Source: a virus (lineage: Duplodnaviria > Caudoviricetes). From it: 64,000 bases of DNA. Under the pieces are notes generated by a model that worked only from the letters and a program-made list of their open reading frames with translations, searched no databases and was not told where the DNA came from. The position numbers and the translations under genes are program-made. The stretch lies in IMG/VR virus record IMGVR_UViG_3300036778_000062, positions 1-64,000 of that record. The stretch is one strand, 5' to 3'. Positions 2,355-43,688 of this stretch are shown here, one piece after another (positions within the stretch are counted from its first letter, which is position 1; every line of letters starts with the position of its first letter).

Positions 2355-3680
2355 TGTGATGGTAAGGAAACTCAGTCGACGTCGCGATCCAATTCGTCCG
2401 GGCTACCGTTGAGGTAGCGGCCGAGTGCCTCGTAAAGATCGCGTGGCCAATTTCCTTTCAACGTCAGCTTCATGCTTTCAGCGTGCGCGGGTCCGACGTT
2501 GATCCAGAAGTGATCCGGTGTCGATCCGAACGTCAGGGTCGTCGGCGATTCCGCCCACGCCTCAATTCGATTTTCAAACGGCATTCATCCCTCCTGCTTT
2601 TGCTGCTGATTAACGTTAGTCAGTTCGCGCGATATTAGCCCAACCAAGTCCTCTTCCAGCTCCTCCATCACGTCGGGGTCAATGCCTCGGAAGCAACTAC
2701 GATCACTGAGATTGTCGAAGATTTTTCGCCATAGGTCTCGCGCTGCTTTCTTGCGATCATGCGGGTGCCGATCTTCGTAATTGCCTCTATCCATCGTTAT
2801 TTCCCTGCTGTGGCTCTTTTTCGATGCAGTTTGGCGGCAACCAATCTGGATAGTTCCAGTCTTGCCGCCAAACGATGCCGCATGATCGGCACGTCCAATA
2901 ACCATCTTCCTGTTGCGGTCTTTCGCAAGTCACTCGCTTCGTCATGGTCTTCCCTTAATGCGCCAGAACGGAGGGGACACAGCGGCCACGGCTTTGATGG
3001 CGTATCCGTCCACAAGAACACGCCGCCAACATCGGCCACATAGTGAGCGGTCACCGGGTTGAACCAAACCCGACGGACCTTCCTGATTCCAATGCGCTCG
3101 CCGGAAACGCTGAACACGGTTCCGCAGCGCAGGTCTCTTGCAATCTCTTCGGTGAGTTTCATTTGCTACCTATGAGCGAATGAGGCGATGGCGTTGGCGG
3201 CGCAGCGCACGGTAATAGTCCACAAATTCCCCTCGCGCCCATTCGAGGGTCCACCAACCGTGATGGCTCAGCAGACTGTTGCCGGTCCCATCCAGACGCG
3301 TGTAACCTTCGCGCCTGCGCTTGTGAAATTCGATTCCGATTAGCTTCCAGCGCATGTTCACGGTCCCTGTCTATTAGCTAACAGAGCGGCCGGCCGCAAC
3401 GGCGGCAGTGCCAATCGCCCTCACACCAGATGTGAAGCCTGATCATTATCTTGGTGAACCAAATCGGCATGTCTACCTCACTCTGATTTCGGCCCATAGA
3501 TACGCTCCATTAGAGCGTAGGCGTCGGCCTTGTATTCGTTTGGCGTCAGGAATCGTTTTCCAACGCCCCAGTCCGATCCAAGCGCCCAAGACACACTCGG
3601 GAATTGCTGCCCCTTCGAAAACTCCTGTTCAAACCAGTACCAAACTACATCTGCGGGACGGTGATCAGGGCGATGCAGGG

Positions 3681-3965: not shown

Positions 3966-4175
3966 ATGGAGACGATTTTGACAAACTTTCCGATACCGGA
4001 TATCTCCCGGCGCATGGGGAGACCTCCGCTGGGTATTAAGCCGACACAGGTCCGACTTTCGGAGGAGGCCCGAGAGCGGATTCGCGAACTTGTCGGCGAG
4101 CAGGGCATGGCTCAATTCATTCGGGAGGCGGTTGATCGCGAGCTGAAGCGTAGAGAGCGGCAGGAGTCGCGCTAA
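3966..4175 (+). CDS. Ribbon-helix-helix (CopG-like) regulator
   Basis: GRPPLGIKPTQVRLSEE...MAQFIREAVDRELKRRE. Confidence 0.7.
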   Translation: METILTNFPIPDISRRMGRPPLGIKPTQVRLSEEARERIRELVGEQGMAQFIREAVDRELKRRERQESR

Positions 4176-34067: not shown

Positions 34068-34442
34068 GTGGCTAGGCCGCGAATTCCGAAAGCCAAAGCC
34101 AAGCTTGAAGCGCGCGACAAAAAGAACCCGCAGCGCTTCACAAACCGCAAAGAGCCCAATGTTTCTGACGCGCTCGGCGATCCGCCTGAGTGGATGGGTG
34201 GCGAGCAGCGATTAGCGTGGCGAACGTTCCAGCGAGAAATTCCGTGGCTCAATCACAGCCATCGCGGCGTGGTTGAGATCGCCACGATTATCAGAGCCAG
34301 GCTAATGGCCGGCGAAGAATGCGGAGTCCAGGCCCTTAATCTTCTCAGGCAATGCCTTGGCTCGATGGGCGCAACGCCGTCAGATGCAAGCAAGGTAACG
34401 TTGCCAGACGATGACGAGGGCAGTGACGACATCCTCGACTGA
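34068..34442 (+). CDS. Terminase small subunit
   Basis: PPEW...MGATPSDASK; position. Confidence 0.8.
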   Translation: MARPRIPKAKAKLEARDKKNPQRFTNRKEPNVSDALGDPPEWMGGEQRLAWRTFQREIPWLNHSHRGVVEIATIIRARLMAGEECGVQALNLLRQCLGSMGATPSDASKVTLPDDDEGSDDILD

Positions 34443-36306
34443 GGCGACGCCCGCTCTTGATAGAGTCTCTGCATACGCGAAGGCCATTTTAGATGGAAGT
34501 ATTGTTGCTGGCCCTCATGTACGAAATGCCTGCCGTCGTCATTTCGACGATTTGGCCAGCTGTGCCGAGCGTGGAATATTTTGGGATGATGCTGCTGCCA
34601 TTCGCGTATTTCGGTTCTTCGAAGAGAAACTGAAACTAAGCGAAGGCCAGTTCGATAACCAGGCGTTTGTCCTGCAGCCGATGCAGGAGTTCATTCTGGG
34701 TTCTGTCTTCGGGTGGAAGCGGGCGGACGGCACAAGGCGGTTCAGGCGCGCGTATATCGAGGCCGGCAAGGGTTGCGGCAAGTCGCCGCTGGTTGGTGGA
34801 ATAGGTCTCTATGGCCTCGCGGCAGATGGTGAGGCCGGCGCCCAGATTTACGCGGCTGCTGCCACCAAGGATCAGGCAGGCATTCTGTTCCGCGACGCCT
34901 GCAAGATGGTGCGTCAGTCGCCCGATCTTGCCAGGCGCCTGAAGTTCAGCGGCGGGTTTGCGCGTGAGTACAACATCGCGCATCACAAGTCGCAGTCGTT
35001 CTTCCGGCCGATGTCGCGGGAGGCCGGCAAGACCGGTTCAGGCTTGCGGCCCCACTTTGCGCTCTGCGACGAGGTGCACGAGCATCCCGGTCCAGAGATT
35101 ATGCGTATGCTGGAGGCGGGCTTTAAGTTCCGCAGGCAGCCGCTTCTGGTGATGATTACCAACTCTGGCAGCGATCGGCTGTCGGTATGTTGGAAAGAGC
35201 ATGAGATGGCCTGCGCAGTTGCCGCTGGCACTCAGACGCCGGATGAGGTTTACGAGTATGTTGGTGAGACGTGGGCGGGCTCGGACGAATATTTTTCGTA
35301 TGTTTGTGCGCTCGACAAGGACGACGACCCGCTAGAGGATCCGTCCTGCTGGATTAAGACCAACCCTCTTTTGGGTGTCACAGTCACCGAGGAATACATC
35401 GCGTCGCAGGTTGCGTTCGCTAAGAATTTCCCGAGTGATGCGCCGGGCGTTTTGCGTTTGTACTTTTGCGTATGGACCGACGCGCATTCGGCCTGGATGC
35501 CGCGCAAGACCGTCGAAAAGGTCATGACGGACTTCGATATCGGCCAACACGATGGCAAGCCGGTATTTCTCGGGGTCGACCTTTCGTCGCACAAGGACAT
35601 GACCTGCGTGGCGTATGTTGCGCCAACTGGCCACAAGGAAATCAAGCGACCTGACGGCAGTAAGTTTCTGGCGCCGACGTTTGATGCATGGGTGGAATCG
35701 TTCACTCCGAAGGACACTCTCAAGCAGCGTGCCGAAGAAGATAAGGCTCCGTACCTTCTGTGGGTGAAGGATGGTTACCTTCAGGCGATTCCTGGCGAGC
35801 GCATACGATATGATTATGTTGCGTATGACGTCCAACAGGCTGATAAGAAATTCGACATCGAGGCTGTCGCCTATGACGATTACGCATTCACCGAATTCAA
35901 GGAAGAGTGCGGCAAGCTTGGGTTAGAACTTACGTACCGAGACCATCCTCAGGGTGGCAACAGGCGCAAGAAGCCAAGCGAAGAATTGGTTGAGAAGGCG
36001 AAAGCCGAAGGATTGCCTGAGCCTGGCGGGTTGTGGATGCCGGGGTCTATCAGAGAACTGGAATCTCTGATCATGGATGGCCGCATCCGTCTCAAGAGCA
36101 ATCCGGTTGTTATGACCGCGCTTATGGCGGCGACATTTAGTGATCCTGATCCGGTCGGCAACAAGTATCTTGTCAAAGACAAGTCACATAGGCGCATTGA
36201 TGCTGCCATCGCTCTCTGTATGGCGGTTGGCGCTGCTGTTGATGGTGCGGGTGACGCGACTGACATGTCGCAATTCACGTCAAACATAATTTCCGTGACC
36301 TGGTAA
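34411..36306 (+). CDS. Terminase large subunit
   Basis: GKGCGKS, DEVHEH, GVDLS, RIDAAIA. Confidence 0.93.
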   Translation: MTRAVTTSSTEATPALDRVSAYAKAILDGSIVAGPHVRNACRRHFDDLASCAERGIFWDDAAAIRVFRFFEEKLKLSEGQFDNQAFVLQPMQEFILGSVFGWKRADGTRRFRRAYIEAGKGCGKSPLVGGIGLYGLAADGEAGAQIYAAAATKDQAGILFRDACKMVRQSPDLARRLKFSGGFAREYNIAHHKSQSFFRPMSREAGKTGSGLRPHFALCDEVHEHPGPEIMRMLEAGFKFRRQPLLVMITNSGSDRLSVCWKEHEMACAVAAGTQTPDEVYEYVGETWAGSDEYFSYVCALDKDDDPLEDPSCWIKTNPLLGVTVTEEYIASQVAFAKNFPSDAPGVLRLYFCVWTDAHSAWMPRKTVEKVMTDFDIGQHDGKPVFLGVDLSSHKDMTCVAYVAPTGHKEIKRPDGSKFLAPTFDAWVESFTPKDTLKQRAEEDKAPYLLWVKDGYLQAIPGERIRYDYVAYDVQQADKKFDIEAVAYDDYAFTEFKEECGKLGLELTYRDHPQGGNRRKKPSEELVEKAKAEGLPEPGGLWMPGSIRELESLIMDGRIRLKSNPVVMTALMAATFSDPDPVGNKYLVKDKSHRRIDAAIALCMAVGAAVDGAGDATDMSQFTSNIISVTW

Positions 36307-36317
36307 CCTAGCCCAAT

Positions 36318-37592
36318 ATGTCCTTCCTCGACAGATGGTTTAACAAAACCATTGACCTTAACGCGGCGAGCCAACCGTTTTGGAGCGGTTTCTTTGGCGC
36401 GAGGTCAACTTCTGGCGAGGAAGTCACATTTGATAGGGCCATGCAGCTCGATGCGGTGTGGGCGTGTGTCAATCTGATCAGCAATGCAATCGGAACGCTT
36501 CCGTGCATTGTTTATGGTGAAGACGGCGTTACGCCTGCAACAGATGACCCGCTTTACGACCTCTTGCACGACTTGCCAAACGTAGACGACACGGCACCAG
36601 AATTTTGGAATATGGTGGTGCTTTGTCTCCTGCTTGACGGCAACTTCTTTGCCGAGATCAAGCGCGTTGGTGGCAGGATTGTTGCTTTAAACCCGATGCA
36701 TCCGCTTGCGGTTCAGGTTAGGCGAGATCCTGAACGCGGATATGCCCGTTATTACGAGTACAATCAGCGTTTTTATATGCAGGCGCCGACAGGCGTGCGC
36801 CGCATTGAAGAAGTGGATATGTTTCACGTCCGCGGCCAGATGATTCCTGAGTGCGACCGCGGTCTTTCTCCGATTTATTTCGCGCATAATTCGATCGGGA
36901 ACGCCATTGCAGGCGAAAAAGCTGCCGGCAAGATGTTCAAGAGCGGCTTGATTGCGACCACTTTCCTGTTTGCTGACCAGGTTCTCAAGCCCGAGCAGCG
37001 AAAACAGATTGAGGATAGCCTCACAAAGTTTGCTGGGGCCGAAAAGGCCGGCGGCGTAACTGTGATGGAGGCGGGCATGAAGGCCCAGCCCATCACGATT
37101 AATCCGATTGACGCGCAAATGCTGGAGTCTCGGCAGTATAGCGTTGAGCAGATTTGTCGAATTTTTGGTGTCCCGCCCGTGATGATTGGCCACGCAGCCA
37201 ACGGCACGACGACTTGGGGTAGCGGGATTGAGCAACTGATCCTGCAATTCTACAAATCTTGCTTATTGCCTCTGGTTGGCCGCATCGAAGCGACGATTTG
37301 TCGAGATCTGTTGACGCCCCAGCAGCGTAAAAATCGCAAAGTGCGGTTTAATTTTACTGCGTATCTCGAAGGCGACAGCACCGCGCGCGCTAATTTCCTC
37401 ACCAAAATGGTTGCCGGTAGCATTTACACCGTCAACGAGGCGCGTGAGTACGAAAATAAGCCAGATGTCGAAGGTGGCGACAAGATTATTGCTAACGGCA
37501 CGATGACGCCGCTGGACAAGTTGGGCGAGCAGCCTGCAGCACCCGCACCACCCGTCACAAACGACAACAAACCACCCGCGAAGGCCGCATAG
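36318..37592 (+). CDS. HK97-family portal protein
   Basis: AVWACVNLI, GLSPI, ICRIFGVPP, NEARE.EN. Confidence 0.93.
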   Translation: MSFLDRWFNKTIDLNAASQPFWSGFFGARSTSGEEVTFDRAMQLDAVWACVNLISNAIGTLPCIVYGEDGVTPATDDPLYDLLHDLPNVDDTAPEFWNMVVLCLLLDGNFFAEIKRVGGRIVALNPMHPLAVQVRRDPERGYARYYEYNQRFYMQAPTGVRRIEEVDMFHVRGQMIPECDRGLSPIYFAHNSIGNAIAGEKAAGKMFKSGLIATTFLFADQVLKPEQRKQIEDSLTKFAGAEKAGGVTVMEAGMKAQPITINPIDAQMLESRQYSVEQICRIFGVPPVMIGHAANGTTTWGSGIEQLILQFYKSCLLPLVGRIEATICRDLLTPQQRKNRKVRFNFTAYLEGDSTARANFLTKMVAGSIYTVNEAREYENKPDVEGGDKIIANGTMTPLDKLGEQPAAPAPPVTNDNKPPAKAA

Positions 37593-37635: not shown

Positions 37636-38751
37636 ATGAATTACAAGCACATCCTTTCGGCATTTATCGCTGAACCGTGGGCCATGCAGCCCGAAAAACT
37701 GGACACATTGTGCCGGTTTGTCGAGTTTAAGGCCAATGGCGGCGTTTATTCCGCAGAGGAATTGGCTGCTCGTGGTTATACGAAAAAGAGTGTTGAATCG
37801 CAGAAGAATGCCGGTTCTGTCGCAATTATCCCGGTTTATGGCGTACTTGCGCAGCGCATGAACCTGATGTCAGAATTATCGGGCGGCACTTCATACCAAA
37901 TGTTGAGCGCGCAGTTGAACGCCGCGCTCACGGATGACGAAGTCAGCAGCGTGGTCCTGGATATTGATAGCCCCGGCGGTGGCGTCCCCGGCGCTCAGGA
38001 GTTGGCTTCTGAAATTTTGGCACTGCGTGGTGGCGATAAGAAGATTATCGCGCAGGTGAACTCGCTAGCGGCTTCTGCGGCCTATTGGATTGCGGCTTCG
38101 GCTGACGAAATCAATGTGACTCCTTCCGGTCGTGCCGGATCGATCGGTGTTTACACGGTTCACGAAGATATTTCGGAGATGCTGGCCAAGGAAGGCGTAA
38201 AGCTGACCTACATCAGCGCCGGAAAATACAAGGTTGAGGGTAACGAAACGGAACCGCTCAGTGCGGACACCAAGAAATTCATTCAAGCCAACGTTGATGC
38301 TTCTTATGCTGCGTTCGTAGATGGTGTCGCTGCTGGCCGCGGCGTCACCTCAGAATACGTGGAAGACAATTTTGGCCAGGGCCGTGTTTTTGGTGCGAAG
38401 CAATTAGTCAAGCGCGGCATGGCGAATCGTGTTGCCACGCTGAATGAGACCCTTGCTGCGTTAGGCGCAGACGTCTCGGCTCCGACTGCCCACATCAGCG
38501 TTGCAAACATGGCGCGCAAAGACGCTGCCGCCACGCTGGCAACCAAAATTCGCGCTGGCGAACCGATTACCAAAAGAGAATTTGAGAACGGCATCAAGGG
38601 ACTTGTTGGCTGTTCGAATGCAGAGGCAGAGCGCGCCGCGCGGCTCTACCTCAAAGACGGTCAGGGGGATCCTGATGACGCCGGTAATGTGGCGGCTTTA
38701 GCCGCGATTGACCGCGTGTTGGCTGAGGCCAAGACGTTTCCCCTGTCATAG
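37636..38751 (+). CDS. S49 (SppA-like) prohead protease
   Basis: DIDSPGG, AASAAYW, GSIGV, SAGKYK. Confidence 0.9.
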   Translation: MNYKHILSAFIAEPWAMQPEKLDTLCRFVEFKANGGVYSAEELAARGYTKKSVESQKNAGSVAIIPVYGVLAQRMNLMSELSGGTSYQMLSAQLNAALTDDEVSSVVLDIDSPGGGVPGAQELASEILALRGGDKKIIAQVNSLAASAAYWIAASADEINVTPSGRAGSIGVYTVHEDISEMLAKEGVKLTYISAGKYKVEGNETEPLSADTKKFIQANVDASYAAFVDGVAAGRGVTSEYVEDNFGQGRVFGAKQLVKRGMANRVATLNETLAALGADVSAPTAHISVANMARKDAAATLATKIRAGEPITKREFENGIKGLVGCSNAEAERAARLYLKDGQGDPDDAGNVAALAAIDRVLAEAKTFPLS

Positions 38752-38763
38752 GATATATTATTT

Positions 38764-39981
38764 ATGTCTACCGAAACTATTCTTGCCGACAAGATTGGCG
38801 AACTCGGCACCTCGCTGGCTTCCATCAAGGAGCAGGTGCAGAATCTTGGAGCTGATTTCACCGCGAAGCTTGCCGCTACTGGCGAAGTCTCGGCCGCAAT
38901 GACCGAAAAGACCGACAAGGCGCTTGCCTCGCTCGGTGAAGTCGTGACTCGCGTAGGTGAGCTTGAAAAGCGTGCTGCGCGCGCCAAGGACGACGTCCAT
39001 TCTGGTAAGGTGATGGGCCTTGGTGATCATTTGATTGCGTCGGAGCAATTCAAAAATACTGACGTTTCTGGCGGCTGGCGCGGTTCGATTCGAGTAGGCG
39101 TCGAGCGCGCTGACATCACCTCGGCCGACACCACTGTCGGTGCCGGTCGGTCTGCCGGAACGTCGCTGGTTCCTGGTGCCCGCGTTCCAGGCATTGTCAC
39201 GCCTCCGCAGCAGAAATTGAACATTCGCGACCTGATCGCGCCTGGCCAGACCATCTCCAGCAATGTGGAGTTCGTCAAGGAAGTTGGTTTTACCAACAAC
39301 GCGCGCCCGGTTACGGAAACAACCACCAAGCCGAAGTCGGACATCACGTTTAACCTCGTGTCCGCCCCGGTTCGCACGCTGGCCCATATCTTCAAGGCCT
39401 CGCGCCAAATCATGGATGATGCTCCGGGACTTGCGAGCTACATCAACGCTCGCGGCACCTACGGTCTTAAGTTGAAGGAAGAGGGTCAGCTTCTGACCGG
39501 TAACAACACCGGACAGAACCTGCATGGCATCCTGCCGCAGGCGTCCGCATTCTCTCCCGCCTTCACTCCTGACAGCGAGCAGGCAATTGACCGCCTGCGT
39601 CTTGCGCTGTTGCAGGTTATTTTGGCCAACTTCCCATCGTCTGGCTTCGTGCTCAATCCGACTGATTGGGCTGCCATCGACCTGACCAAGGACAACCAGG
39701 GCCGCTATATCGTCGGCAATGCGCTTTCCCCGAACAGCCCGGCCTTGTGGGGACTTCCTGTTGTGGAATCGCTGTCGATGACGGCAGGTACGTTCCTGAC
39801 TGGCGCGTTCAACCTCGGTGCGCAGATCTTCGACCGCATGGGCGTTGAAGTGCTGCTTTCGAGCGAGAACTCGGATGACTTCGAGAAGAACATGCTCACT
39901 GTACGTGTCGAGGAGCGCCTGACACTCGCTGTTTATCGCCCCGAGGCGTTCGTGACCGGCGATGTTTCGGCCTCGTCCTAA
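38764..39981 (+). CDS. HK97-fold major capsid protein
   Basis: LNPTDW, LWGLPVV, DFEKNMLTVRVEERL. Confidence 0.95.
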   Translation: MSTETILADKIGELGTSLASIKEQVQNLGADFTAKLAATGEVSAAMTEKTDKALASLGEVVTRVGELEKRAARAKDDVHSGKVMGLGDHLIASEQFKNTDVSGGWRGSIRVGVERADITSADTTVGAGRSAGTSLVPGARVPGIVTPPQQKLNIRDLIAPGQTISSNVEFVKEVGFTNNARPVTETTTKPKSDITFNLVSAPVRTLAHIFKASRQIMDDAPGLASYINARGTYGLKLKEEGQLLTGNNTGQNLHGILPQASAFSPAFTPDSEQAIDRLRLALLQVILANFPSSGFVLNPTDWAAIDLTKDNQGRYIVGNALSPNSPALWGLPVVESLSMTAGTFLTGAFNLGAQIFDRMGVEVLLSSENSDDFEKNMLTVRVEERLTLAVYRPEAFVTGDVSASS

Positions 39982-40031
39982 ACAATAAATGGTGTGGGGT
40001 TCGGCCCCACACCGTTCCCTTGGAGTTTTTC

Positions 40032-40424
40032 ATGATAGTCCGCGCGCTACGAACGACGTTTGACAACAACTACGGCTCGTTGCATCAAGGCGCCGTCGCC
40101 GAAGTTGACGATTACACGGCGCGCGAGTTGATCGCACAGGGTTATGCGATCAAGGAATTGCCTCTTGCCCAGCAGGAGGCTGCGAATGACAACAGCCCTT
40201 TCGCCCAGACTGGTTCCCAGACTGGCGCGGATCCACTGCGGTCATTGTTGCTGGAGGACCTAGTGCAGGCTGCGCCGGTCTTGCCGCGGTTAAGCACAGA
40301 CCCGGAGTTCGCTTCCTCGCCATCAATAACGGATACAAGCTATGCCCATGGGCAGACGCTCTCTACGCCTGCGACTTCGACTGGTGGAAAGCGGAAGAGG
40401 GGGCGCCCTCGTTTGCAGCGCTAA
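40032..40424 (+). CDS. Small post-capsid protein with -1 slippery site
   Basis: Follows the capsid gene; ARELIAQGYA; C CCT TTC at 40196-40202. Confidence 0.65.
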   Translation: MIVRALRTTFDNNYGSLHQGAVAEVDDYTARELIAQGYAIKELPLAQQEAANDNSPFAQTGSQTGADPLRSLLLEDLVQAAPVLPRLSTDPEFASSPSITDTSYAHGQTLSTPATSTGGKRKRGRPRLQR

Positions 40425-40840
40425 GAATTACGCAGGACGGATATAAGCCAAGGCCAGAGTGGGAATTGCGCGCCGTTACGTTGGTCAGAAACTGCGACAG
40501 GCTACTGTTTAACAGGTTTGGCGAGATTGGCTGGGGCGGCAACGGTGGCTTTCACGCGTTAAATCTGGCCATTCAGTTTGGCGCGCGACGTATTGTATTG
40601 GTTGGATATGATATGCGCGTCGACCACGGGACGCACTGGCACGGTGACCACCCGAAAGGGATGAATAATCCGGCGGCTGTGAACGTGAAGCGCTGGCGTC
40701 AAGTTCTAGACGCTCAGGCTGGGTTATTGAAAGAGATGGGCGTCGAAGTGTTAAACGCCTCCGCTGTTAGCGCGCTTGAAGCTTATCCCAAAATGACACT
40801 GGAAGCGGCGATATACGGTGGAATGAATGTCGCTGCTTGA
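40190..40840 (+). CDS. Glycosyltransferase-like (DUF115/Maf/CST-like) domain lacking its own start
   Basis: AVIVAGGPS, LAINN, WADALYACD..WW, GFHALNLA..GARRIVLVGYD. Confidence 0.65.
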   Translation, partial: QQPFRPDWFPDWRGSTAVIVAGGPSAGCAGLAAVKHRPGVRFLAINNGYKLCPWADALYACDFDWWKAEEGAPSFAALRITQDGYKPRPEWELRAVTLVRNCDRLLFNRFGEIGWGGNGGFHALNLAIQFGARRIVLVGYDMRVDHGTHWHGDHPKGMNNPAAVNVKRWRQVLDAQAGLLKEMGVEVLNASAVSALEAYPKMTLEAAIYGGMNVAA

Positions 40841-41204
40841 TCTTGATCTCATCAAAAGTCATTTAAGGGTGGACGATACCGAATCGGATACGCTGATTGC
40901 AGCGTACCAGGCAGCCGCCGAAAGTATCGTTGCACAGTATCTCGACCGAGATGTGTATGCAGTTGGCGATTCTCCGGTGCCGACCGATCCATATGCGATT
41001 GAATTGCAGCCTCCAATGGTTGCGGCCATACTGCTGTTGATCGGCGATATGTACCTTTCTCGGGAAACTGAAGACACCGATTTCCAGAGAAGGCCCGTTG
41101 TTGGATTTCCGGCCGTCTTGCCTCGTCCAGTTCGCGCGCTGTTGGCTCCATATCGCGTATGGCGCACAGTGAGCGAAGGCTATCACCACCGTGATTGCTT
41201 CTAA
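40827..41204 (+). CDS. Head-tail connector (gp6-like)
   Basis: KSHLRVD, AAILLLIGDMY.RE, ALLAPYR. Confidence 0.85.
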   Translation: MSLLDLDLIKSHLRVDDTESDTLIAAYQAAAESIVAQYLDRDVYAVGDSPVPTDPYAIELQPPMVAAILLLIGDMYLSRETEDTDFQRRPVVGFPAVLPRPVRALLAPYRVWRTVSEGYHHRDCF

Positions 41205-41670: not shown

Positions 41671-41859
41671 ATGTCTGCACCTATCCTTAAATATTTTGCA
41701 TACGAGCATTTGCCTGAACAGCTTCAGGCCGTGAGCGCACCGCTTGGAGTTGTTGCGGACTTGATGGACGGGTCTCTTCCTGATGGTGCAGAGAAATCTG
41801 CGGGGCTGCGAAAACTGCTTGAGGCTAAGGACTGCTTTGTCCGAGCCAAACTTGGCTAA
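41671..41859 (+). CDS. Small helical-hairpin phage protein
   Basis: AEKSAGLRKLLEAKDCFVRA. Confidence 0.65.
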   Translation: MSAPILKYFAYEHLPEQLQAVSAPLGVVADLMDGSLPDGAEKSAGLRKLLEAKDCFVRAKLG

Positions 41860-42256
41860 GCCGCCGCTGCTACTGCATGGAATGTTCGGGCTGGGTGATA
41901 ACCTTCATATCCGGGCGATTGTCCGCCAACTCATGCAGCGTTACGACGTCACATTAGAAACTTGCTGGGTTGCGCCGTTTCACGATCTGATTGCACAGGG
42001 CCTGCGCGTTGTTAACAAGCCCACTTCGCTAAGAACCCAAGCCAAAAACGCAAAACGTGAGGCCAGCCTGTTCTCCAAATCGCGCCCGGTCGGTGCCCAC
42101 ACTCGCAAGGTCTGGTATTCGCCGCAGGAAGTGCGGGACAATCGCGGCGTATTATCTGCGATGTGCCGCAACTGCGATGTGTCTTATGACAAGGCGGATT
42201 TTCGCCTACCCGTGAAACCTGAATGGGTCGCCGCTGCGAGGGCTGTAATAAATTGA
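41852..42256 (+). CDS. GT-B (GT9-like) glycosyltransferase, N-terminal half
   Basis: GMFGLGDNL motif. Confidence 0.6.
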   Translation: MAKPPLLLHGMFGLGDNLHIRAIVRQLMQRYDVTLETCWVAPFHDLIAQGLRVVNKPTSLRTQAKNAKREASLFSKSRPVGAHTRKVWYSPQEVRDNRGVLSAMCRNCDVSYDKADFRLPVKPEWVAAARAVIN

Positions 42257-42621
42257 TGATAGTGCCAAAGGTTTGGGGATCTGAGAAAGTTATCGTCAAT
42301 ACGCCGGGCTACTGCGGCAAGTTTCTTCGTGTCGCAGCCGGTATGCAGTGCAGCCTTCACAGGCACCGCATTAAGGATGAGACGTTTTACGTGGTCAGTG
42401 GCGTACTTAACGTCGAATTGGGGCCGACTCCTGACGAAGCACGCAACAATCCAATCGTAATGCATAAGGACGACAGCATTCGCGTTGCGCCCGGCTCGTG
42501 GCATCGCTTTGGTTCGGTCGACGGTGCGGTGATCGCGGAGTTTTCAACGCACCATGACGATGCGGACGTTGAGCGGGCGGAAGAGTCTGGGCCGCTTATG
42601 TACGGGCAGGGCGGTGCTTGA
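42256..42621 (+). CDS. Cupin sugar isomerase-like protein
   Basis: PKVWGSE, SLHRHRIKDETF, PGSWHRF, EFST. Confidence 0.8.
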   Translation: MIVPKVWGSEKVIVNTPGYCGKFLRVAAGMQCSLHRHRIKDETFYVVSGVLNVELGPTPDEARNNPIVMHKDDSIRVAPGSWHRFGSVDGAVIAEFSTHHDDADVERAEESGPLMYGQGGA

Positions 42622-43177
42622 TAAGCCAATCCTGGTCTATCGCCCTCTGGTCGAGCGCACTGAATGGAATGGATGCGCCGCGCGTAACCCAGACCATAAT
42701 GCGTATGCCGAGCTGTATGCTTCAGTGAGAGATCGCTTCCATGTTGTCTCGATAGCGGATCTGGTGCCGGGAAAAGAGTGGATGGTTGGTCATGAGGTTG
42801 AAGTTGACCAGAAATTCCATGCCGGTGAATTGCCTTTCGAGACTCTTGCTGGGCTGTTTTCTATTGCGGCGATGGTATTTGCATCGCCTGGATTCGCGGT
42901 GATCCTGGCGCAAGCTGTAGAGACGCCGGTCGTGGCCGTCTTCGGCTCTTACGAGGCCAGTTATAGTTTTAGCGGTGGCGCGCGTTGGTGCCCGTACTTG
43001 GGAATCGACCCCATCAGGCCGTGCGACGATTTCAACCATAGCAATACGAAAGACAAAACCATTGACGTTGAAGCCGCCAAAGCCCGCATCGCCATATTCG
43101 CCGCCGAGGCGATCGAGCGTCACAATAGACGCGCCGAAGGCGGACTTGAGCGGGCTGCCAACGCGCTATGTGCATGA
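42614..43177 (+). CDS. GT-B glycosyltransferase, C-terminal half
   Basis: LAGLFSIAAMV...LAQAVETPVVAVFG. Confidence 0.6.
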   Translation: MLDKPILVYRPLVERTEWNGCAARNPDHNAYAELYASVRDRFHVVSIADLVPGKEWMVGHEVEVDQKFHAGELPFETLAGLFSIAAMVFASPGFAVILAQAVETPVVAVFGSYEASYSFSGGARWCPYLGIDPIRPCDDFNHSNTKDKTIDVEAAKARIAIFAAEAIERHNRRAEGGLERAANALCA

Positions 43178-43688
43178 GGGCGAATTAGATGTTCTTATTC
43201 ATCTCGTCCGATCTTTGGATGCACGTGTGGTTGCAGAGTTTGGCTGCAACAATGGTCGCACCGCTGCAGCTGTATTGCGAAACGTGCTAACGATTGAGCG
43301 GTACATCGGCGTAGATGTACCTCTGGGATACGTCACGCCGTGTAAAGTACAGCGCCGAGAGGTGCCTCAGCGACCGGGCGAGTTGGCGCTAGCTGACGGG
43401 CGGTTTGAATTGGTGTTGCGCGACCGAGGCACGTTCGATCTATCCGCCAAAGACTTTCCTCAGTGCGATTTGATTTTTATTGATGGCGGACATGACGAGG
43501 CTGCTGTTCGAAATGATCGCGACCTTGCTTTGCGGGTTGTGCGCGCTGGCGGTCTTATTGTTTATCATGACGATAATGGCCTTCGTACCGTTGATGTTAG
43601 TCGCGTGCTTGACGATATCCACGATAACGGCGCTGATGTCAGGCATGTTTCGGGGACTTGGCTGGCATTTGAGTATGTGGGGGGATAA
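43068..43688 (+). CDS. Class I SAM methyltransferase (Methyltransf_24-like); start uncertain
   Basis: EFGCNNGRT, DLIFIDGGH, GGLIVYHD. Confidence 0.8.
   Translation: MKPPKPASPYSPPRRSSVTIDAPKADLSGLPTRYVHEGELDVLIHLVRSLDARVVAEFGCNNGRTAAAVLRNVLTIERYIGVDVPLGYVTPCKVQRREVPQRPGELALADGRFELVLRDRGTFDLSAKDFPQCDLIFIDGGHDEAAVRNDRDLALRVVRAGGLIVYHDDNGLRTVDVSRVLDDIHDNGADVRHVSGTWLAFEYVGG

Follow-up and report, generated by a model that had tools for sequence, protein, structure and literature searches.

Lambda-like phages reportedly make use of a -1 frameshift in the gene pair for the tail assembly chaperones G and GT, and -1 frameshifts in capsid genes that add a C-terminal extension are said to occur in T7 (10A/10B) and in the major head protein of Lactobacillus phage A2 (at C CCA AAA). 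To our knowledge, the annotation of programmed frameshifts in phages is nearly confined to tail assembly chaperones. The C-terminal domain of lambda gpFI is said to bind the capsid. gpFI forms a bridge between the capsid and the terminase-DNA complex (PMC13595911), tail assembly chaperone frameshifts form the main training set of PRFect (PMC10885494) and, in FlmG of Caulobacter, an N-terminal flagellin-binding domain confers substrate specificity on this cytoplasmic protein glycosyltransferase (PMC7591256). Here, we describe a gene pair in the head module of the prophage-type virus IMGVR_UViG_3300036778_000062 (56.7% G+C), in a 64,000-nt stretch of this record that is referred to as the window and to which all coordinates refer unless another locus is named; the features around the junction of the pair are all on the plus strand. 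A first-pass annotation of the window had proposed that a small post-capsid protein is fused to a glycosyltransferase-like domain by a programmed -1 frameshift. This proposal is strongly supported by a conserved frame offset, a slippery heptamer that turns over among relatives, natural fusions and purifying selection, and we consider it very likely that the small gene makes both a 130-residue protein and, by a -1 shift at C CCT TTC, a 269-residue fusion protein.

Overlapping frames and the probable slip site in the window and its relatives

The small post-capsid open reading frame (ORF; 40032-40424) runs from the ATG at 40032 to the TAA at 40422-40424 and encodes, by standard decoding, a protein of 130 amino acids. 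It matches phrog_2616 (E 2.7e-7) and, with E 1.3e-15, a hidden Markov model (HMM) that we built from the first 48 residues of the small ORFs; the first 42 residues (40032-40157), common to both predicted products, are called the N-domain in the following. Within this ORF, the codons AGC CCT (Pro56) TTC (Phe57) contain the sequence C CCT TTC (40196-40202), a heptamer of the X XXY YYZ type whose register is that of the 0 frame. A TGA in the -1 frame (40187-40189), two codons upstream of the slip site, bounds the region in which a shift would be productive, and a -1-frame stop immediately upstream of the slip site is common among the relatives. From 40190 onwards the -1 frame is open until the TGA at 40838-40840, and the first ATG, GTG or TTG in it is the TTG at 40466, inside the enzyme domain. 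The fusion product predicted for a shift at the heptamer consists of 57 residues of the small protein plus the 212 codons of the enzyme frame (40202-40840, including the TGA), i.e. 269 amino acids, with NSPF/RPDWFPDW at the junction and ELPLAQQEAANDNSPFRPDWFPDWR as the junction peptide. What the first-pass annotation had stated about the ORFs, the register of the heptamer, the start-free -1 frame, the junction and the position of an AGGAGG motif upstream of the site proved correct on rechecking.

The part of the enzyme frame between 40190 and 40465 comprises 92 codons without ATG, GTG or TTG at 56% G+C. Such a stretch would be uncommon by chance (1-2% by a rough, uncomputed estimate) and may reflect an avoidance of internal initiation.

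The layout was compared among 82 related phage loci, consisting of 80 IMG/VR loci, Tetraselmis virus S20 and PAJU2, and a locus was classified as frameshift-type if the enzyme frame has no ATG, GTG or TTG before the conserved (A/G)SGPS loop. This applies to 52 of the 82 loci (45-48 of them unique), S20 included, and the small ORF reads through the junction in all 52. By HMM, the N-domain is located directly upstream of the enzyme in all frameshift-type loci but one, always in the frame that needs a -1 shift, and the same scan never placed it in frame with the enzyme or at +1 among these loci. Enzymes with an ATG of their own are found at 29 loci, where the start lies 13-21 codons before the loop and no N-domain is adjacent by HMM. 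In the enzyme tree, frameshift-type members occur in either deep half and own-start forms are nested at several points, while four in-frame fusions, described below, form a single clade beside the clade of the window. The geometry of the frameshift-type loci was also seen in bacterial genome contigs, in no fewer than 12 prophages; among their hosts are Ensifer sp. MPMI2T, Pandoraea anapnoica, Halomonas getboli, two Alcanivorax, Pseudomaricurvus, Roseicyclus and several metagenome-assembled genomes; the closest relative in a genome contig, with 76% identity, belongs to a Bradyrhizobiaceae metagenome-assembled genome.

Two phages with RefSeq records have the same arrangement. In Tetraselmis viridis virus S20, the enzyme of which is 45% identical, C CCT TTG is in register with the post-capsid ORF, and the enzyme frame opens at a -1-frame TGA directly before it. 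Pseudomonas phage D3 (NC_002484.2) shows the same geometry for orf6.5/orf7, with C CCA AAG as the site. The RefSeq records of both phages (S20 TVGG_00050/00049 and D3 orf6.5/orf7) give two separate genes with the enzyme cut to an internal start, which is an ATG in S20, and no frameshift annotated; correcting this mis-annotation, found in the records examined, restores a full-length enzyme. No paper describing this frameshift was found in literature searches covering PmgP, sialyltransferase, DUF7302, capsid glycosylation, D3 and PRFect.

At the position homologous to the heptamer of the window, the relatives carry CCCTTTN, which is kept in the window's clade, S20 and others, or GGGAAAC, GGGAAAA, AAAAAAC, AAAAAAA, CCCAAAA, GGGTTTG or CCCCCCG, and D3 carries CCCAAAG. 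An XXXYYY hexamer occupies the -1-compatible register in 27 of 45 unique start-less loci, compared to 3 and 3 in the other two registers, and when only hexamers with AAA or TTT as YYY are counted, the numbers are 23 versus 2 and 1. This bias exceeds chance, and together with the offset, which is always -1, it shows that the frame offset and a slippery site are kept in divergent homologues. When 40 small ORFs are aligned, just one column is nearly invariant, the one holding the Pro codon of the slip site. Since the own-ATG relatives have no 'PF' (CCC TTY) codons, the conservation of the site acts at the nucleotide level. Comparison with the relatives establishes linked, overlapping frames with a conserved -1 site, an enzyme without any other start and a fusion that exists in relatives.

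A few loci differ in other respects. L089 (Bradyrhizobium macuxiense BR 10303) has a frame break inside the PDWFPDW region, at about 2420-2510 of that locus, where a 0-frame-like GQTGFLIG is read instead; in contrast to the junction conserved elsewhere, this internal break marks either a genuine pseudogene or an error of sequencing. In L031, a frameshift-type copy (601-1313, with a small ORF at 601-861 followed by a start-less enzyme) is accompanied by an own-ATG paralogue (2498-3103). S20 has two annotated copies of the enzyme, and P1 has PmgO and PmgP. In view of these double copies, 'own-start' matches at other loci may represent the second paralogue of the cassette. The enzyme frame of six loci (L029, L032, L050, L061, L066 and L067) runs on for hundreds of codons, with ends at 4003, 3592, 4402, 3661, 2457 and 3937, respectively, and the frameshift product predicted for these loci would be much larger and multi-domain.

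Natural fusions, selection and rival explanations

Four of 120 database homologues (P0008, P0009, P0013 and P0015) are uninterrupted ORFs consisting of the N-domain and the enzyme (hhalign E 7.9e-5). Residues 1-51 of P0015 align to residues 1-56 of the 0-frame product of the window (E 2e-4); from residue 43 to residue 247, P0015 matches the -1 frame with 56% identity (E 2e-72), meaning that this uninterrupted protein is colinear with the predicted trans-frame protein, with the switch at the slip site. The gene for P0015 directly follows the capsid gene of its phage, L083 (IMGVR_UViG_3300036851_000151). Two genes further downstream (L083, 4806-5924), a different protein of 372 amino acids starts with the same N-domain (MTLRVQVRRDF...ARELERNGLV), here in frame with a 330-residue region for which there is no Pfam match. 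As two different proteins carry the N-domain in the head module of this one phage, the domain behaves as a module that is attached to enzymes.

Selection was assessed from the ratio of nonsynonymous to synonymous substitution rates (dN/dS) between the window and five relatives. The enzyme, which is under strong purifying selection, gave 0.08-0.09 beyond the overlap and 0.20-0.32 within it, and the N-domain 0.10-0.26. Synonymous divergence was lower in the overlap (0.47-0.52 versus 0.69-0.83), as is expected under a second constraint.

The remainder of the 0-frame product is rich in Ser, Thr and Pro and ends with GGKRKRGRPRLQR, a basic, AT-hook-like C-terminus (40383-40421) that overlaps the enzyme frame. 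The number of Lys and Arg among the last 15 tail residues has a median of 5 in frameshift-type loci, compared to 2 when own-start relatives are read in the corresponding frame (p 6e-5), the tail of one relative has a Pfam AT_hook match, and the part of the enzyme that the basic motif overlies changes from lineage to lineage. Up to 10 codons from the loop, the 0 frame has a stop in 0 of 46 frameshift-type versus 6 of 23 own-start loci (p 8e-4); the frameshift-type loci evade it by encoding the Leu of the SLT motif otherwise than with CTG-A. The length of the open 0-frame tail did not differ from that in own-start relatives (p 0.8) and is uninformative by itself. From the other comparisons, the tail looks like a selected basic, AT-hook-like C-terminus and both products probably matter for this reason.

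We propose that translation would start at the ATG at 40032 and that most ribosomes would read straight through, giving a 130-residue product composed of the folded 42-residue N-domain, a disordered Ser/Thr/Pro-rich linker and the basic C-terminus KRKRGRPR. A fraction of the ribosomes would slip back by one base at C CCU UUC (40196-40202), where tRNA-Pro would re-pair from CCU to CCC and tRNA-Phe from UUC to UUU. These ribosomes would then read the -1 frame to 40840 and produce the N-domain and about 15 linker residues fused to a Maf/CstII-like transferase.

Several observations weigh against this explanation or narrow it. The trans-frame product is predicted from sequence comparison. A significant 3' structure was not found in the window (folding z -0.5 to -1.6), where the repeated PDW codons directly downstream of the heptamer form a weak local hairpin (40203-40228) that is not significant, and RNAalifold detected neither compensatory changes nor covariation in the window's clade. 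The efficiency of frameshifting in the window may thus be low and, since no significant stimulatory structure is present in the window, we infer that the shifting ribosomes are a minority and their fraction modest. The large GRW...ASGP subfamily has a hairpin of 10-11 bp that starts 2 nt after the heptamer, with the GRW codons in one arm and the ASGP codons in the other. Pairing is seen in 87% of cells versus 21-56% in slid controls, with compensatory changes at two pairs and folding z of -3.2 to -4.2, and the complementarity is 9-10 out of 10 in most frameshift-type members, while own-start relatives whose protein motifs are similar average 4.5. On this evidence, frameshift-specific RNA constraints exist in the family, not demonstrably in the window. 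The AGGAGG at 40174-40179 is located 16 nt upstream of the heptamer, as previously noted, but its distance to the heptamer varies and is larger in the closest relatives, because the motif encodes the conserved residues Q-E-A. A role of AGGAGG as a dnaX-type stimulator, considered as a candidate, was rejected since this spacing is not conserved. Moreover, many relatives hold a partial site (C CCU UCG, C CCU ACN) at which only the Pro tRNA can re-pair, and the mechanism in these relatives may differ in detail; the full tandem slip site is present in the window. As the codon after C CCU is non-slippery in many relatives, the constant element is the shift of tRNA-Pro from CCU to CCC. Finally, the naive dN/dS of the 0-frame tail is about 0.8-1.8, a value that is not interpretable in an overlap, so that selection on the tail is judged from composition and stop-codon avoidance only.

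Of the rival explanations, the most specific is that the enzyme starts at an ATG at 40186 in the third frame (ORF at 40186-40263, 25 codons, TAG at 40261-40263) and that tRNA-Leu slips by +1 on CUU-U, as in the RF2 gene, with no fusion being made. This ATG has AGGAGG at ideal Shine-Dalgarno spacing, 6 nt upstream, a third-frame ATG four codons before the CTT is present in 6 of the 7 members of the window's clade and in S20, and in L003-L005 (2507-2515) the third frame reads CTT TAG, like the RF2 +1 site (CUU UGA). However, CTT TAG is not kept in the rest of the clade, the Shine-Dalgarno sequence is well placed before the third-frame ATG in the window alone, and a third-frame start before the site is missing in L032, L073, L017/18, L039, L042/44 and L048 and lost in L004. 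In addition, a +1 slip on CUU is impossible at GGGAAAC, AAAAAAC and CCCAAAA, the frame of the N-domain is without exception compatible with -1, and uninterrupted fusions of N-domain and enzyme exist. We regard the +1 slip as highly unlikely, and the ATG at 40186 is probably not used as the enzyme start. The same ATG had been put forward in the first-pass annotation as the true start of a continuous frame, disrupted by a 1-nt insertion or assembly error behind it; this idea fails, as the ATG is missing outside the closest clade and a frame running on uninterrupted from such an ATG is present in none of the homologues. More generally, a 1-nt indel, either an error of sequencing or assembly or the mark of a pseudogene, may be suspected in a soil metagenome assembly of modest depth (13x in Logan contigs), the more so as one relative, L089, has an internal frame break. 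It is a barely credible explanation for an offset that is shared by about 50 independent contigs, cultured isolates and the phages D3 and S20, that is never +1 and that precedes an enzyme with the low dN/dS given above. The CCCTTT itself was checked in Logan contigs, which are identical to the window across 39950-40900 without indel or variant; these contigs come from the only public run that contains the stretch, a soil metagenome that is probably the source sample, and are thus not sample-independent.

The enzyme could also be made separately from an internal or non-canonical start, either the TTG at 40466 or a rare start near 40190-40245, with the overlap being incidental. Public gene callers indeed give a 124-aa ORF from 40466 (P0005) and comparable truncated ORFs in S20 and D3. 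The fold, however, is compact and consists of a single domain, and a start at 40466 would strip it of about 90 conserved residues and of the invariant GGPS loop, D58 and W62; about 50 lineages have no ATG, GTG or TTG between the -1-frame stop and the conserved N-terminal W, and both the register of the heptamer and the conserved hairpin are left unexplained, which makes separate initiation most improbable. Slippage of the RNA polymerase (transcriptional realignment) instead of the ribosome would account for a frame change at long A runs, such as those at the site in a few relatives (A9 in L048, A7 in L040). The homopolymer runs that support transcriptional slippage in IS elements and in Thermus dnaX are far longer than three, whereas the site of the window has just C3 and T3 runs and most relatives have runs of three, too, and a transcriptional origin is therefore exceedingly unlikely. 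A programmed -1 ribosomal frameshift remains our preferred explanation.

Structure, gene context and possible role of the two products

The enzyme was modeled with AlphaFold2 (AF2) using 59 sequences, with a predicted local distance difference test score (pLDDT) of 95.3. The model was most similar to the central domain of a Maf flagellin glycosyltransferase (5mu5; Z 15.0 over 186 residues), followed by the Campylobacter GT42 sialyltransferases Cst-I (Z 12.8) and CstII (Z 12.5; Foldseek E 1.6e-5) and, as a weaker match, the archaeal MptE kinase (Z 11.9). According to this model, the enzyme has a Maf/CstII (GT42-like)/MptE-like fold over its whole catalytic domain. It matches phrog_4603 (E 6.4e-49; annotated in PHROG as alpha-2,3-sialyltransferase); with 19.5 bits it is below the Pfam gathering cut-off for PF01973 (34.6). 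G19, P20, D58, W62, G135, D137, H145 and N185 are invariant in the family, the conserved features of which also include the GGPS loop and an HWHG.H motif.

The AF2 model of the small protein shows a beta-beta-beta-beta-alpha-beta fold for the N-domain (pLDDT 90-96 for residues 1-40) and disorder in the rest. The best structural match was the GINS B-domain (Z 6.7), to which there is also a weak sequence match (E 0.098), followed by the N-domain of bL9 (Z 5.5), the C-domain of lambda gpFI (2lsm; Z 4.8, root mean square deviation 1.5 over 42 residues) and B. subtilis YqbF (2hjq; Z 4.5). These Z-scores are within the range of common small folds, and the likeness to gpFI and YqbF is therefore a lead rather than a finding. 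In Pfam, the small protein has just weak matches to DUF7302 and DUF7210.

The gene pair lies between the HK97-type capsid gene (38764-39981; PF05065) and the gene for a gp6-like head-tail adaptor (40827-41204; PF05135, phrog_40), in a head module that further comprises the terminase (34411-36306), portal (36318-37592) and protease (37636-38751) genes. The adaptor gene begins, with the ATG at 40827, before the enzyme frame has ended, so that the two share 14 nt, and the genes further downstream (41783-42256, 42223-42621 (cupin), 42554-43177 and 42975-43688 (Methyltransf_24)) overlap each other, which together indicates a tightly coupled cassette. Genes near the enzyme include those for a cupin and a Methyltransf_24 protein. 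A search of the window for further copies of the enzyme and the N-domain found none.

The N-domain is probably a docking module that brings both products to the same partner. This partner is plausibly the assembling head, on account of the position of the gene between capsid and head-tail adaptor, within a sugar/methyl-transfer gene cluster, and by analogy with the position of gpFI and with the N-terminal domain of FlmG; with the corrected annotation, the start-less enzyme of the frameshift-type loci would always be joined physically to the small post-capsid domain. More tentatively, and with considerable doubt on our side, the N-domain might be a modular tag by which glycan-modifying enzymes dock on the assembling head, with the frameshift setting how much capsid-tethered Maf-like transferase is made relative to an FI-like, DNA-binding accessory protein with an AT-hook tail. 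If so, the tag would be attached by frameshift in the window and D3, while in L083 two different enzymes would be fused to it directly, and the locus would belong to a widespread virion-glycosylation system in phages of Proteobacteria. In any case, the fusion offers a testable handle on the targets of 'sialyltransferase-like' cassettes (P1 PmgP, D3 orf7, PAJU2 gp10) and bears on whether the virions of phages of Gram-negative bacteria are glycosylated.

Comparison with described frameshifts, transferases and post-capsid proteins

The closest counterparts of the pair in the window are D3 orf6.5/orf7 and S20 TVGG_00050/00049, which represent the same gene pair at the same position, with the same -1 offset and a basic tail on the small protein. 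The frameshift would be a second deeply conserved one in phages, located in the head module and present in classical cultivable phages such as D3.

With regard to transferases, sequence identity to Maf and Cst proteins is just about 10-14% and the enzyme of the window lacks the flanking domains of Maf. FlmG resembles the predicted fusion in having a small module attached to the N-terminus of a cytoplasmic transferase. gpFI and YqbF share with the small protein the location of the gene right after the major capsid gene and the combination of a small folded domain with a long flexible region. However, the GINS B-domain and bL9 score higher, no sequence similarity to gpFI or YqbF was detected, and the order of domains in the window protein is the reverse of that in gpFI.

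Among frameshifted genes, the capsid genes of T7 and A2 are similar in belonging to the head module, in their C CCN-type slippery site and in having a minor product that is an extended version of the major one. In these phages, however, the extension is structural and is added to the capsid protein itself, whereas in the window a soluble transferase-like enzyme would be added to a small accessory protein. The likeness to G/GT goes further: in both cases, a phage morphogenesis gene has an X XXY YYZ site and two products with a common N-terminal part, and the frameshift is kept across very distant phages while the heptamer turns over and in-frame fusion is very rare. The rare replacement of the frameshift by in-frame fusion, here and in G/GT, implies that the ratio of the products matters. 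On the other hand, G/GT is located between the major tail and tape measure genes, while the window pair is located between capsid and head-tail adaptor, the -1 extension is an enzyme domain instead of a domain binding the tape measure, and the 0-frame continuation of the window is long (74 codons) and overlaps the enzyme frame. The window pair thus works like G/GT without being a member of it. Accordingly, the frameshift belongs to the known conserved -1 programmed frameshifting in phage morphogenesis genes, and what is unusual about it is the presence of an enzyme on the frameshift product.

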